From Octopus vulgaris (Eukaryota), in assembly GCA_951406725.2 (NCBI GenBank), contig OX597819.1:13578001-13642000 (forward strand): 64,000 nt of DNA. Direction: 5' to 3'. The position numbers were made by a program, and so were the translations under genes. Positions 2,777 to 59,991 of this stretch are shown piece after piece. The notes under the pieces are model-generated. The model was not told the DNA's origin. It worked only from the letters and a program-made list of their open reading frames with translations, and did no database searches. Positions within the stretch are counted from its first letter, which is position 1. Each line of letters opens with the position of its first letter.

Positions 2777-2824
2777 GTCTTACAGCTGTTTCCAGGATAT
2801 TTATTATATCCCTTCATCAGAGAC
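2777..2824 (-). ncRNA. Minimal type-I hammerhead ribozyme, canonical core
   Basis: GUCU-CUGAUGA-a-GGGAUAU(aauaa)AUAUCCU-g-GAAA-CAGCUG-UA-AGAC: stems I and II pair, palindromic stem III, GUA cleavage triplet. Confidence 0.8.
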
Positions 2825-3259
2825 GATGTGAGAGGATGGTTAAGAAATAGTTAATTTAGATAAGATACAAGATAGAGAGTGAGGTGGAGGAAAGAAAATA
2901 GATGTGAGATATGTAGGAATATTGTATTTGTAGATCCATTTTTTTAGGCTGAATGGTATACATATAAGATTCCAATACCTTATGAGTAAAATCCAATAGT
3001 ATTTAAAATTGGTCATTCCAAGTATAGAGTTTATACACAGTGTTATTGAATCAAGGGTATATACACACTGACACATGACCAACGTTGAACCCTTTATTCG
3101 CATAATCACTTAACTATGGTCTATCTATAGCATTTATTCAGCATTAACTGGCATCTTTGGGTCTCAATGACACCATCACCTCTCATAATCTCTCTCTCTT
3201 CCTCTCTCTCTCTCTAACCACTATACACATTTTTTTCTCTCCTTGTTTTTTCTGTGTTC

Positions 3260-3295
3260 CTTTCTGTAGAAGAGCGTAGGCTCGAAACGTAAAAG
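3260..3295 (+). ncRNA. Hammerhead-like motif with A6U core, inside a short repeat (about 3215-3390)
   Basis: CUUU-CUGUAGA-a-GAGC(guag)GCUC-GAAA-CG-UA-AAAG. Confidence 0.6.
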
Positions 3296-3439
3296 ACTTT
3301 TTTTCTATTCCTGAGCGTTATGCTAATACATCTGTTTGTTTTGTACACGACCTGTCTTCGTCTTTTGTTTTTTTCGTAAACTCTCCCTATATATATATAT
3401 ATATGTACACACACACACACACATATATGTATATCTCTA

Positions 3440-3920
3440 TGCACAGGCGTGACTGTGTAGTGAGAAGTTTGTTTCCCAAGCACATGGTTGCAGATTCAGT
3501 CCCACTGAATGCCATTTGGACAAGTGTCTTGTACTATAGCCCTGGGCTGACCAAAGCGTTCTGGTGGATTTGGTAGATAGAAATTGAAAGAATCCCATTT
3601 GTGTGTGTGTGTATATTTATGTATGTGTGGGTTTGTATTTGTCCCCCACCACTGCTTGACAACTGCTGTTGGTGTGTTTATGTCCCTGTAACTTAGCAGT
3701 TCGGCAAAAAAAAAAAAAGTGATAGAATAACTACAAAGCTTAAAAAAATAAGTCCCTTTGTGTGTTTATGTCCCTGTAACTTAGCAGTTCGGCAAAAAAA
3801 AAAAAGTGATGGAATAACTACAAAGCTTTAAAAAATAAGTCCCTTTGTTCAGCTAAAACCCTTCAGTGCAGTGCTGCAGCATGGCCACAGTTAAACGACT
3901 GAAACAAGTACAAGATAAAA
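3440..3920 (+). mobile_element. SINE family A (tRNA head, CORE-like body, internal microsatellite) with internal ~87-bp tandem duplication
   Basis: Diverged family A head and tail; gtgtgtttatgtccctgtaac...agtccc repeated at about 3673 and 3760. Confidence 0.8.
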
Positions 3921-4333
3921 GATATACACGCGTGTGCGTACGCTATGATTGTTTATCCATAACTGACTTCTTCATAAATCTTTGACTATAGAAAAAGGTG
4001 TGGCACTCTTTTCTTTTGTTTAATCGTTTAAGTTGGCTTTTCTCAAGAGAAGTCGCAGTTTTCTCAAGACACTCGGCTTTGTGTTCTGATTATAATAGTT
4101 TACACTTAATTTCACACACACACATGCACAGTACCCTATATTCTGTTCCATGCAAATATAATTATTATCTAACATTTATTTTAATTTTGTGTTTCACATC
4201 AATTAGTAGGCTAATAGTGGATCCCCTTTAACAATTGAGATCCACCTCCCCACCCTGGTTGAAATCTTGGTTACACCCATACACAGTTCATTCACATACT
4301 GTCGTACATATACATATAACCCACAATTATATA

Positions 4334-5262
4334 CAAGGAGCTATCAAAAAGTTCCCAGACTAGTTATGTTTAATAAAAAAAATAACTTATTTACCTGAAT
4401 GTTAACCTAATCTCCTTTGAAATAGTCACCTTGCACACCAATGCACCAGCCTCGGTGTTCCTGTCCCTTTTGGAATCCACCTTGGAAGTCGTTTTCCATA
4501 AGCAAGTCGAGGACCTTCTGTGGTTCTCTCTGGATCTCGACAACGGTGTTAAAAAACGATAGCTTTTGATCTGCATTTTCTTCTTTGGAGAAGAGATGGA
4601 AGACTGCAGGTGCTGAATCTAGTACATAGGGCAGGTGTGGAAGGGATACCATGTTGTTTCTTTGGTGAGAAACTGATAAGTGAGAAGAACTCAATAATGG
4701 TGCATTGCCATTGTAAAGAATCCAGTTCTTTGCACTCCACAGATCTGGTCACTTTCACTGAATTTTCTCCCTCAGATGCTTCAAAATGTCACAGTAGAAC
4801 TCTCAATTGACAGTCTGGTCCCTGGGGGTGAATCCTCAATGCACAATACTGCATTTCCATGGGTGACACTCATGGCAGGTCTTCTAGATCGCTCATCATC
4901 TTCCAGAGACATTCTACTGCTTTTGAAATGCCTGTGTCCCTCAAAACATTGCATTACAACCCATTACCTCATCACCGTAAGTTTGCCAAAGCATGCTCAA
5001 TGTCTCTGCAGCAGACTTCCCAAGTTTAATGCAAAATTTCACATCAGCTCTTCATTCCTGTCCATGACAAAATCGCAGACTACAGCATTCACACGTGATC
5101 ACAGAAAGACAAATTTCACAACTTGCGAAGTAAACACAGCAATGTCACTCAGCACACTGCCCCATGAAGGTCACTGCTTGCTCTCACTGCGCAAGCAACT
5201 GTGTGCTGCCATCTGTTGGCATGCTACAGAACTAGTCCAGGAACCTTTTTGATAACACCTCA
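4334..5262 (-). mobile_element. Mariner transposon, deleted and decayed
   Basis: ~31-bp imperfect TIRs (caaggagctatcaaaaagttcccagactagt / actagtccaggaacctttttgataacacctca); HLPYVLDSAPAVFHLF...QGDYFKGD matches the mariner HPPYSPDLAP..F C-terminus. Confidence 0.85.
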
Positions 5263-5309
5263 TGCATACATACAGTGTGTATGTCTTGTAAGGTACTCGG
5301 TGACTCTGT

Positions 5310-57340: not shown

Positions 57341-57382
57341 ACGCACACACGCACACACGCGCGCATGTATGTTCGGACCCAC

Positions 57383-57502
57383 ACGAAAGGCTCTGTGCAT
57401 TCCATTTATGACCGTCAGGAATGAGTTGGCCACACGCCACCCCGAGCCAAAATATTTGCACCTTGCCTCGTTTCTCGACCGTTTTGTCTTTTATACAGAA
57501 AT
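57383..57502 (-). CDS. Candidate symmetric phase-1 exon (120 nt), unknown product
   Basis: Acceptor ttttttatatcag, donor gtgggt; only one frame open: (D)FCIKDKTVEKRGKVQIFWLGVACGQLIPDGHKWNAQSLS. Confidence 0.35.
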
Positions 57503-59072
57503 CTGATATAAAAAATCTGCTCAAAGTGGTGTGTTTATGACACGTTGCTAGTTCTAGTTTCACCCTCTGTCTACCACCACCACCACCACCACCACCACCA
57601 TCATCATCATCATTTGTCTTTCCTCTCCGCCACCACCATCCTAATACCGTCTCTCTTCTCCCCTCTTTCTCTCCCCCCCACACACACTCACACACAAACA
57701 CGCATGCACGCACACATGTCCGTGACACAGCATTTATCTAGTAAGCAAAACCGCCCTTGCGCTTCGTCCTTTTCTCCTCCTTCTCCTCCCGATTGCCAAG
57801 GACCCGTGACATACGACGACGGCTCCATTTACATTATAGTTTAGTTGCACACAACTCCTCACACACACACACACACACGTTACGAGTGAAACAATAGCCG
57901 CCGTCGCTGCGTGCTGACATCGAACTGAAGTGACGCGGAAAGGATCTGGCAGCGGTGTGTGAAAAAAATGGCGTGCGTGACTGCAGGAACGAAGGTCGTT
58001 TGTCCACCATCGACCGAACCATGGAATGATGATGGTGGTGGTGATGGTGGTGATGGTGGTGATGGAGGTGGTGTTGGAGTGTCATCTCTTGGGAATTTTA
58101 GGTAGGATCATGTGAGAAACTAACGAGGCCCAACATATATCTCTTTTCTTCTCGTTGGAATCGAACTCACTGGTCGACCTTGATTGAATCAAGCTGGCAC
58201 CAAAATTATTCCAGCCGTGGCTATCACGTCTGTTTTTAGACTTTAAAGTTACATTATCCGCTGTGTCCTTCTTTGTTTAAGACTACAAAGTGCGGTTTGA
58301 CTGATATTTCTAGCAGGTTGGTCAAGAAATACCCAAAGGGTCCCTTCTTGTCTCGTTTCTACATAAAGTGCTTTTCCCCTATGTCAACGCTAGACGAACA
58401 AAACTAAAATTAAAGACATTCCTATCATAGTCATCCCAACTTTTTAAAGCTTAGTGTGCCTCTGGGTGGGGTGTAGTTTGAAGGAATTTTAGCTACTGTT
58501 TCTACCAGCGGTTCGAGCAGCGACATTGATGATTACTGCGTTGGCTTGGGAAAAATACACAGGGACACCTGCTGCAGGTAAACTTAACAGTGAAGTGGGT
58601 GCCAACATACAAAATGTAGTAAACCAAGGAATTTGTGTTAATTAAAATTAAGGAATTGTCTCATCTGCCAGTCTAAACTTGAGTTAATCATTTAGGAAAT
58701 TAATATCCTCATCAGTTAATCACAAAATTTATTGGCCCTCGACATTAATTAAGCTAACTTTCACTTTACTGTTGAGTTTCCATGCAACAGGAGACCCTGG
58801 TTATCCATAACCCACCGTCTCAGTCATTATTTTAAGCTATAAAGCCTTTATACACTTCTCCCATCATCAAAGACCTCCGGTGGTATTTAGACCTTGCGAA
58901 GATGATGAGGTCAAATAAAATCGGAGCATATTCGGAGTTGTCACCGTCATACAGAAGATCAGTTTTTTTTTTTTTTTTTTGCAATGTATTACCCACTTTA
59001 TTAACTTTAATTAATTAAAATTCTGGGGTTGTCACCCCTTGCTAATTTTGATGAGAATTAGTCCTTTAGAAA

Positions 59073-59120
59073 ATAAATGTTTCAAAAACTGACAGAAGTC
59101 CCTAATTCTTCATCAGTTAT
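59073..59120 (-). ncRNA. Degenerate hammerhead-like motif
   Basis: AUAA-CUGAUGA-AGAAUU..GAC(uucu)GUC-AGUUUU-u-GAAA-CA..UUAU; stem III and cleavage site damaged. Confidence 0.35.
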
Positions 59121-59251
59121 CAACCAGTTGCTAATACACAGCTTTGCACCTTTAACGATAAGACTGAGAGCTTCACAATAGATGGCGCCCGTACAAAAAA
59201 AATATTTTTGTGGATATATATATATATATATATATATATATATATATATAT

Positions 59252-59706
59252 AGGCGCAGGAGTAGCTGTGTGGTAAGTAGCTTGCTTACCAACCACATGG
59301 TTCCGGTTCAGTCCCACTGCGTAGCACCTTGGGCAAGTGTCTTCTACTATAGCCTCGGGCCGACCAAAGCCTTGTGAGTGGATTTGGTAGATGGAAACTG
59401 AAAGAAGCCCGTCGTATGTATGTATGTATGTATATATATATAAATATATATATATGTACACACACACACACACACACACACACACATACATATATATATG
59501 TATATATTTGTGTGTCTGTGCTTGTCCCCCAACATCGCTTAACAACCGATGCTGGTGTGTTTACGTCCTCGTCACTTAGCAAGAGAAACCGATTGAATAA
59601 GTACTAGACTTACAAAGAATAAGTTCTGGGGTCAATTTGCTCGACTAAAGGTGGTGCTCCAGCATGGCCGCAGTCAAATGACTGAAACAAAATAAAAGAA
59701 TAAAAG
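59252..59706 (+). mobile_element. SINE family A
   Basis: Full length, between (TA)n tracts. Confidence 0.9.
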
Positions 59707-59907
59707 AAGTACATATATATATGTATATGTATATATATATATATATATATATATATATATATATATATATATATATATATATATATATATATATATATAT
59801 ATATATATATATGTATATATATACACCAGAATTTTGTATGGTGTTCTCCATATAAATCTATGGGGTGATTATAATCAAAATAAGCAACAAGAATAACTTC
59901 GGTAATC

Positions 59908-59991
59908 TGGTACGATCGTTTCGCACTACATCATTTTATTAAATGTTGTAAGTATTACAACAGTTTTAAAATGCTGAGCACTCATCAGCCA
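59908..59991 (-). ncRNA. Type-I hammerhead ribozyme, canonical core, long stem II
   Basis: UGG-CUGAUGA-GUGCU..UGUUGUAA(uac)UUACAACA..AGUGC-GAAA-CGAUCG-UA-CCA. Confidence 0.8.

Follow-up and report, generated by a model that had tools for sequence, protein, structure and literature searches.

Penelope-like repeats in an Octopus vulgaris contig carry minimal type I hammerhead motifs and a predicted rewired form with permuted block order

Our analysis of a 64,000-nucleotide (nt) stretch of Octopus vulgaris DNA (assembly GCA_951406725.2, contig OX597819.1, positions 13,578,001 to 13,642,000; the window), a microsatellite-rich part of a 2.8-Gb genome of 227 contigs, points with good probability to 3' ends of Penelope-like retroelements, scattered along it together with those elements' short passengers and carrying two kinds of hammerhead ribozyme motif. 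One is the minimal type I hammerhead, with a family-specific pair between core positions 3 and 8; the other is a rewired form in which the cleavage block (S), the GAAA block (G) and the core block (C) follow one another in the non-circularly permuted order S-G-C, predicted to be self-cleaving and likely derived from Naiad elements. We go further, with somewhat less assurance, and propose that Naiads and passengers lacking open reading frames (ORFs) carry an active CSG-class hammerhead, and that in many lineages a helix and a hairpin split its block C, leaving stem II to be completed from upstream. Such a topology would be new and abundant in animal genomes, and it would explain why Naiads seem to lack a ribozyme.

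A preliminary description of the window, made from its letters, had listed a site at 59073 as a damaged type I motif. That assignment has to be given up: GAAA lies downstream of the core in only 2 of 51 copies of the repeat concerned, family H, and otherwise stands upstream of the core with the cleavage block further upstream, which is the S-G-C order. A type II reading of family H was also rejected, since its covariation score did not exceed shuffles (284/500) and one subfamily breaks stem I. Rereading the site revealed the second architecture, of which an intact copy, not named before, lies at 55586-55703. In this arrangement G12 is preceded by a strand whose partner, joined to it first by a G-C pair, stands upstream of the cleavage block. 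The letters that follow A9 find their partner still further upstream, with a hairpin in between, and an additional helix prolongs stem III. This inserts a helix plus a hairpin between A9 and G10.1, and G10.1, supplied by the strand upstream of the cleavage block, would pair with C11.1. The predicted stem I (6 base pairs, bp) and stem III (5 to 7 bp plus the extension helix) are long and non-palindromic, and one molecule would therefore suffice. Closed into a circle, the rewired form would equal a type-CSG hammerhead opened inside the A9-G10.1 insertion. The window copies are as follows, with the parts of the family J motif counted by hand.

55586-55703, + strand: intact permuted hammerhead motif of family J (344 genome matches), the sole window match of the full descriptor
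55586-55590 (5' strand) and 55699-55703 (3' strand), + strand: closing helix of the J motif
55591-55622, + strand: hairpin of the J motif, with the G10.1 strand at 55623-55627
55629-55638 and partner 55676-55685, + strand: stem III extension of the J motif
55642-55647 (3' strand) and 55666-55671 (5' strand), + strand: stem III of the J motif
55648, + strand: U17 of the J motif, with the predicted cut after it
55649-55654 and partner 55686-55691, + strand: stem I of the J motif
55658-55662, + strand: 11.x strand of the J motif, with GAAA at 55663-55666
55692-55698, + strand: core CUGAUGA of the J motif
55515-55830 (approximate ends), + strand: family J repeat copy around the motif, between TA-rich runs
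48737-48780, - strand: family J copy that keeps blocks G and C only, the truncation lying before the cleavage block
59100-59188, - strand: damaged, 5'-truncated permuted hammerhead of family H (the site listed as 59073), with C17 at 59162, a changed G12 position at 59145 and CUGAUGA at 59116-59110

A second CUGAUGA stands at 58709-58715 on the - strand, 400 bases from the family H copy; no GAAA partner was found for it.

At least four ORF-poor repeat families share the rewired motif: H (745 genome matches, with up to one mismatch allowed), J (344), K (2,392) and Lf (379). The four families have the same helix order in different letters and all keep G10.1-C11.1; the scores of family J against H and K are no higher than those of shuffles, and H, K and a further family, M, show some likeness. 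A scan for the S-G-C order returned the intact window copy (55647-55698) along with other families, giving 15 matches in 1,747,919 letters not fetched for family H and none in three shuffles. The full descriptor gave 51 distinct matches in 2,036,289 letters, most of them from loci fetched for rewired families and 8 from other loci or the window, and again none in three shuffles. With positions 3, 6, 7 and 8 left free, 47 of the 51 read CUGANGA and all 51 have A6. The upstream partner strand beginning with G10.1-C11.1 forms 5 bp in five of nine representatives, and 4, 3, 2 and 1 pairs in the others, the last being truncated. Units are also found in tandem, spaced 720-726 nt in a five-unit array of K, 552-676 nt in H and 831 nt in J; a K dimer holds one 197-codon ATG frame. 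Within family H, a set of 50 copies, namely the window copy and 49 others selected by a pattern spanning blocks S and G, paired in 85.6% of cells against 82.0% in shuffles and showed 107 double changes against 53.5, neither value being reached in 500 shuffles; slid controls paired in 26-41%. Rfam reported no hammerhead in the 150 of 354 window matches listed, none at gathering level on four family H loci and, with E<=10 allowed, none in the J motif or in four H/K loci; metagenome scans for the H and K motifs gave 0 matches. A shorter S-G-C motif was seen in another family, N (L028:584-620 and L042:1798-1834); by eye, one published Naiad end looks similar to it in stem I and in the strand before GAAA.

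A connection with Naiads is suggested by the available text of Craig et al. 2021 (PMC8557442), which says that Naiads are without canonical hammerheads, flags some of them "HHR_core" or "HHR_half_core" and lists the Octopus consensus Naiad_Ovul as half-core. In the supplement of that paper, the rewired fold can be traced by eye at the ends of Naiad_Ovul and of the preceding record. CTGATGA was viewed at 60 of its 62 places in the same supplement (PMC8557442), 19 of them in presumed Naiad sequences; 8 of these 19 appear by eye to have the split form, 2 an uninterrupted C-S-G form with direct stem II, and 9 are unfit or unclear. Given the uninterrupted cases, the split form appears to be a CSG hammerhead opened inside an insertion between A9 and G10.1. 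Three of the split-form cases adjoin records whose names we take to be cnidarian, and the two uninterrupted ones lie near a record that is presumably nematode. On this comparison of letters, the rewired motif is likely to derive from Naiad elements and may be their missing ribozyme.

Several observations weigh against this reading or narrow it. In family H, pairs with a double change (n=13) are not above shuffles (158/500), the tree resolves into about three subfamilies, and of the 20 highest column pairs in a free ranking just 4 are among those proposed; covariation in H alone is therefore modest, and the evidence across families is the stronger. The signal is thin in a strictly unbiased 600 kb, with one canonical-core S-G-C match (0 in four shuffles), and any-core matches there number 4 against 8, 2, 5 and 3 in shuffles. 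A direct stem II between blocks G and C reaches at most 1 bp in H and K, and the fold therefore departs from the validated type SGC; in J a direct 4-bp stem II is possible, with the upstream 5-bp partner also present. We found no tested precedent in the literature for placing a helix between A9 and G10.1. For K and J, nested minimum-energy folding, which cannot represent pseudoknots, does not recover the catalytic junction, and no rewired motif was found 3' of a Penelope-like frame in the loci examined. The comparison with Naiads covers CTGATGA cores, by eye on published text. What is shown for the rewired form is its sequence, its copy numbers, the complementarity of its helices and the conservation of its core letters; its cleavage and expression are predictions. 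On the type I side, the U6 and U3.G8 cores described below may be weakened ones.

If the rewired form is active, tandem units of 650-830 nt would be transcribed and cut after H17 into unit-length RNAs, which would then be copied into TA-rich sites by a Penelope-like reverse transcriptase (RT)/GIY-YIG protein; the stretch after A9 would pair with a strand further upstream, so that the site of the single extra nucleotide in type I Penelope hammerheads would be occupied by a helix and a hairpin. An alternative that we regard as unlikely, but as the best of the rivals, is that the rewired fold is real and selected without cutting, and serves as a protein-binding or priming structure with relic hammerhead letters. 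Genomic copies do keep sequence on both sides of the predicted cut, and passages of PMC11167929 report that cleavage is dispensable for in vitro insertion and that there are no RNA ends at the site. A relic does not readily fit with catalytic letters that are canonical across dissimilar families even where positions 3, 6 and 8 were free (47/51), with the retention of G10.1-C11.1 in H, J, K and Lf, or with the in vitro cutting of related permutations given in sections of Eckert et al. 2023 (PMC10085705). Less probable again is that activity requires a dimer or refolding, with strands from two copies building an ordinary junction and the monomer pseudoknot inactive. Tandem units are common in K, H and J, the monomer requires the distal ends of three helices to meet, and J can form a direct stem II, all of which would suit a dimer; yet stem III of the rewired motif is long and non-palindromic, no tandem reading converts S-G-C to the classical order, and monomeric SGC and CSG RNAs cut in the experiments described in PMC10085705. 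It is very improbable that the pattern arises from hairpin-rich repeats and from fitting the descriptor after family H had been seen: the descriptor was indeed designed post hoc, most of the 51 matches come from loci fetched for rewired families and the unbiased sample holds a single canonical match, but J, K, Lf and M were found by scan rather than by anchoring, helix sequences vary between families around a constant core, and both the scan outside H loci and the full descriptor, with no match in shuffles, weaken this explanation.

The other kind of motif, minimal type I, accounts for nearly all of what the preliminary description had named, namely about ten motifs sharing the order stem I, core, stem II, GAAA, palindromic stem III, UH and stem I'. 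Families A to G have this order, and 11 of 11 named coordinates are true motif edges. Together with one mirror copy these make 12 motifs, of which 6 pass a descriptor with core positions 3, 6, 7 and 8 left free, 5 are damaged copies of real families, and 1, at 59073, had been misread and is of the rewired kind. In the window this descriptor picks out 6 sites, each already named and each paired at 3-8, against a mean of 0.41 +/- 0.72 in local dinucleotide shuffles, 0 of 100 of which reached 6. The five sites that fail as single copies (13165, 24755, 36618, the mirror of 21182, and 54821) belong to motif-bearing families found genome-wide. Judged by their letters, then, the flagged motifs are for the most part genuine copies of hammerhead motifs known from Penelope-like elements. 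Penelope-like protein matches were absent from the window. Genome-wide match counts given for the type I families are of exact patterns and so lower bounds.

2777-2824, - strand: minimal type I motif of family A; C3-G8, 6-nt palindrome; passes the descriptor; 464 matches
3260-3295, + strand: minimal type I motif of family G; C3-G8, U6; pseudo-long-terminal repeat (pLTR) of an RT/GIY-YIG element; passes the descriptor; 20,769 matches
13165-13201, + strand: family D copy; U3-A8, stem I mismatch; within a head-to-head insertion; fails the descriptor
21182-21231, + strand: minimal type I motif of family E; G3-C8, 7-bp stem I, computed stem probabilities 0.92 and 1.00; passes the descriptor; 7,244 matches
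21093-21143, - strand: inverted family E copy (mirror of 21182); stem II mismatch; fails the descriptor
24755-24790, - strand: family G copy; CpG-decayed palindrome; fails the descriptor
36618-36663, + strand: family C copy; C3-G8; altered G10.1 and stem I; 10,489 matches
36463-36537, - strand: tRNA-like head of family C, inverted; A- and B-box-like motifs by eye
54743-54809, - strand: family F motif, inverted 5' copy; U3.G8; passes the descriptor; 358 matches
54821-54885, + strand: family F copy that opens an ORF-less partial tandem of 481 nt; no 5' strand of stem I at the inversion junction
55302-55370, + strand: family F motif, second unit; U3.G8; stems not favoured in the monomer fold ensemble; passes the descriptor
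59908-59991, - strand: type I motif of family B; C3-G8, long stem II, 6-nt palindrome; passes the descriptor

The control extends beyond the window. In 60 evenly spaced 10-kb stretches (600 kb, at round coordinates), the type I descriptor gave 27 matches against a mean of 2.0 in 12 shuffles, with a Watson-Crick 3-8 pair in 25 of 27 (18 C-G, 5 U-A, 2 G-C), one U.G and one mismatch. Looser hammerhead matches were unevenly placed in these stretches (L151-L210), 9 of 37 lying within the first 500 bases while control motifs were uniform; the family results do not rest on this sample.

Covariation at 3-8, which the preliminary description had put forward, stands at the level of families. Among copies spanning the motif, the pair is G-C in 42/47 for E, U-A in 37/42 for D (143 genome matches for one variant, 468 with an upstream anchor) and in 21/21 for the family of the element at locus L214, and C-G in 63/68 for C, 61/66 for G, 21/23 for A and 5/5 for B. 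All 14 clusters of two or more copies are paired (p=0.001 on permuting position 8), with the caveats that the families are relatives of one another and that in two clusters the copies form an inverted pair at a single locus; the majority pair is Watson-Crick in 13 of the 14, family F being U.G. The clearest double change separates D and E, which are related (alignment score 86.5 against a shuffle maximum of 70; 66 against 52 for the part 3' of the motif alone) and differ as U-A and G-C. U.G had been counted as compensatory too, a view that we do not retain, as it is a one-sided change in a family with its own C-G subfamily (27/41 copies U.G, 12/41 C-G). Polymorphic columns are fewer in core and stems (2/198) than in loops and flanks (93/806; p=2e-7, with columns not independent and anchored copies included).

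The core given as CUGURGA at 3260 and 24755 does belong to a real family, G, but its true form is CUG-U-N-GA: U6 is kept in 64 of 66 copies, against A at position 6 in the other five families counted, and position 7 can be any base (A 20, C 12, U 20, G 14); position 17 in the same 66 copies is A in 41, U in 16, C in 4 and G in 3. The variation at 3-8 is real and mostly extends known biology. Available sections of PMC4209133 (Cervera and De la Pena 2014) report U3-A8 in Penelope-like hammerheads, that text and sections of PMC3088659 show natural U3-A8 and a low-activity A6C to be known, and partial rescue by C3G/G8C is given in PMC11167929; with U3-A8 and this rescue already in print, the point is less new than first presented. 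Natural G3-C8 or A6U hammerheads were not reported in the literature searched; Lunse et al. 2017, outside that search, may cover them. The high-copy natural G3-C8, U6 and U3.G8 cores offer a panel with which to ask what alterations of the core Penelope-like elements can bear, and whether cutting matters for the element's cycle.

The hammerhead identity and the Penelope-like context claimed for the type I motifs are both supported. Family G lies 3' of RT and GIY-YIG sequence on the same strand at one locus (L217; Pfam GIY-YIG E=0.0014, below cut-off), and family D has weak GIY-YIG-like matches upstream in 5 of 20 loci. A whole element at L214 runs pLTR, ORF1, a 781-amino-acid RT plus GIY-YIG frame and pLTR, with U3-A8 in both repeats; its ORF1, of 359 codons, gave no Pfam match above cut-off. 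The label non-autonomous thus suits some families, but G and D stand behind same-strand GIY-YIG frames and an intact RT plus GIY-YIG element carries U3-A8. For families A, C, E and F no RT/GIY-YIG frame was found. Family F is an ORF-less 481-nt partial tandem; its placement as the pLTR of a GIY-YIG frame at L059 was rejected, given that a TA run lies between them and that F is tandem. Two further observations concern frame-bearing elements: the two-ORF element at L214:433-5665 has many 781-amino-acid copies genome-wide, and a 574-amino-acid Penelope-like family (L216, L203) has a type I C3-G8 motif 430-610 bases 3' of its frame.

Copies of family E are about 210 nt long, 15 of 30 begin 55-66 nt upstream of the predicted cut, and they have two preferred 3' ends, like the Penelope "tail"; no long upstream extension or ORF was found in 60 loci. 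By eye, 6 bases of the fixed 5' end could pair with either preferred 3' end (for example in window 21165-21315), a match that possibly sets the ends or the inversion point. In family C, a tRNA-like head is joined by an (AAT)n spacer to a hammerhead-bearing Penelope-type 3' end (window 36463-36720; L261-L275, L321-L350), which makes the family a candidate short interspersed nuclear element moved by a Penelope-like element; its A- and B-box-like motifs were seen by eye in several copies, and ARAGORN and Rfam gave no tRNA match.

No pile-up of 5' ends was seen at the predicted cut in 30 copies each of E, G and C, the nearest ends being at -9, -8 and +6 in E, -7 and -1 in G, and -27 and +9 in C. 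The tandem dimers expected for type I proved rare, with one same-strand pair against 25 head-to-head pairs in 125 anchored loci. Both results fit the account in PMC11167929, as far as its available text goes, that uncut RNA is the main template and that cleavage needs protein. In the type I families, insertion appears to proceed from RNA that is not cut; for cleavage, a dimer in trans or help from protein would be required.

Elsewhere in the window, two tandem arrays are built from pieces of other repeats, one of 15 copies of 48 nt (22740-23463) and one of 6 identical copies of 74 nt (33635-34081). Frames at 52608-53234 (+ strand) and 40854-41270 (- strand) resemble what we take to be fragments of mariner-type transposases.

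The type I motifs agree with those in the available text of PMC4209133 in block order, short stem I, palindromic stem III, an extra nucleotide after A9, G10.1-C11.1, the many solo and inverted copies and the presence of U3-A8 families. They differ in the family-wide G3-C8 of E, the U6 of G and the U3.G8 subfamily of F, all absent from that portion of the paper, and we found no octopus entry in the part of its supplement searched. The rewired form shares with types SGC and CSG, as given in sections of PMC10085705, the S-G-C order, the canonical core, a short linker between stems I and II and the pseudoknotted topology. There, cleavage of SGC and CSG was validated, block C was assumed to be uninterruptible, and the permuted forms came from metatranscriptomes and metagenomes, with none from genomes of known organisms but one bacterial candidate. 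The rewired motif has the block order and core letters of type SGC, and stems I and III with covariation (within H at subfamily level, and between families). It departs in the direct stem II between blocks G and C, which is at most 1 bp in H and K, and therefore counts as a variant, not a member, of type SGC/CSG. No other report of "type-SGC" was found in the open literature searched, a search of article text rather than supplements or subscription papers.

Non-LTR (long terminal repeat) retrozymes, in available parts of Cervera and de la Pena 2020 (PMC7229834) and of the preprint by Li et al. 2026 (10.64898/2026.07.22.740005), likewise are ORF-less head-to-tail units with one hammerhead each and are tied to Penelope-like elements; such units are found here in F (481 nt), H, K and J. 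Units here are 480-830 nt long against about 220-350 nt in those retrozymes, and H, J and K carry the rewired motif, unlike the type I of retrozymes, whereas F is minimal type I. Naiads, in the sections of PMC8557442 cited above, resemble the rewired families in core halves that misfit canonical descriptors, in (TA)n targets and in inverted and partial tandem insertions; that text gives no fold for the Naiad core ends, and the rewired families are ORF-poor. Permuted ribozymes with a split block in thousands of animal-genome copies would extend the topology of the hammerhead. A split-block class, if true, means that current descriptors miss a whole class of hammerheads, and it turns the thriving of Naiads without canonical hammerheads into a testable puzzle.

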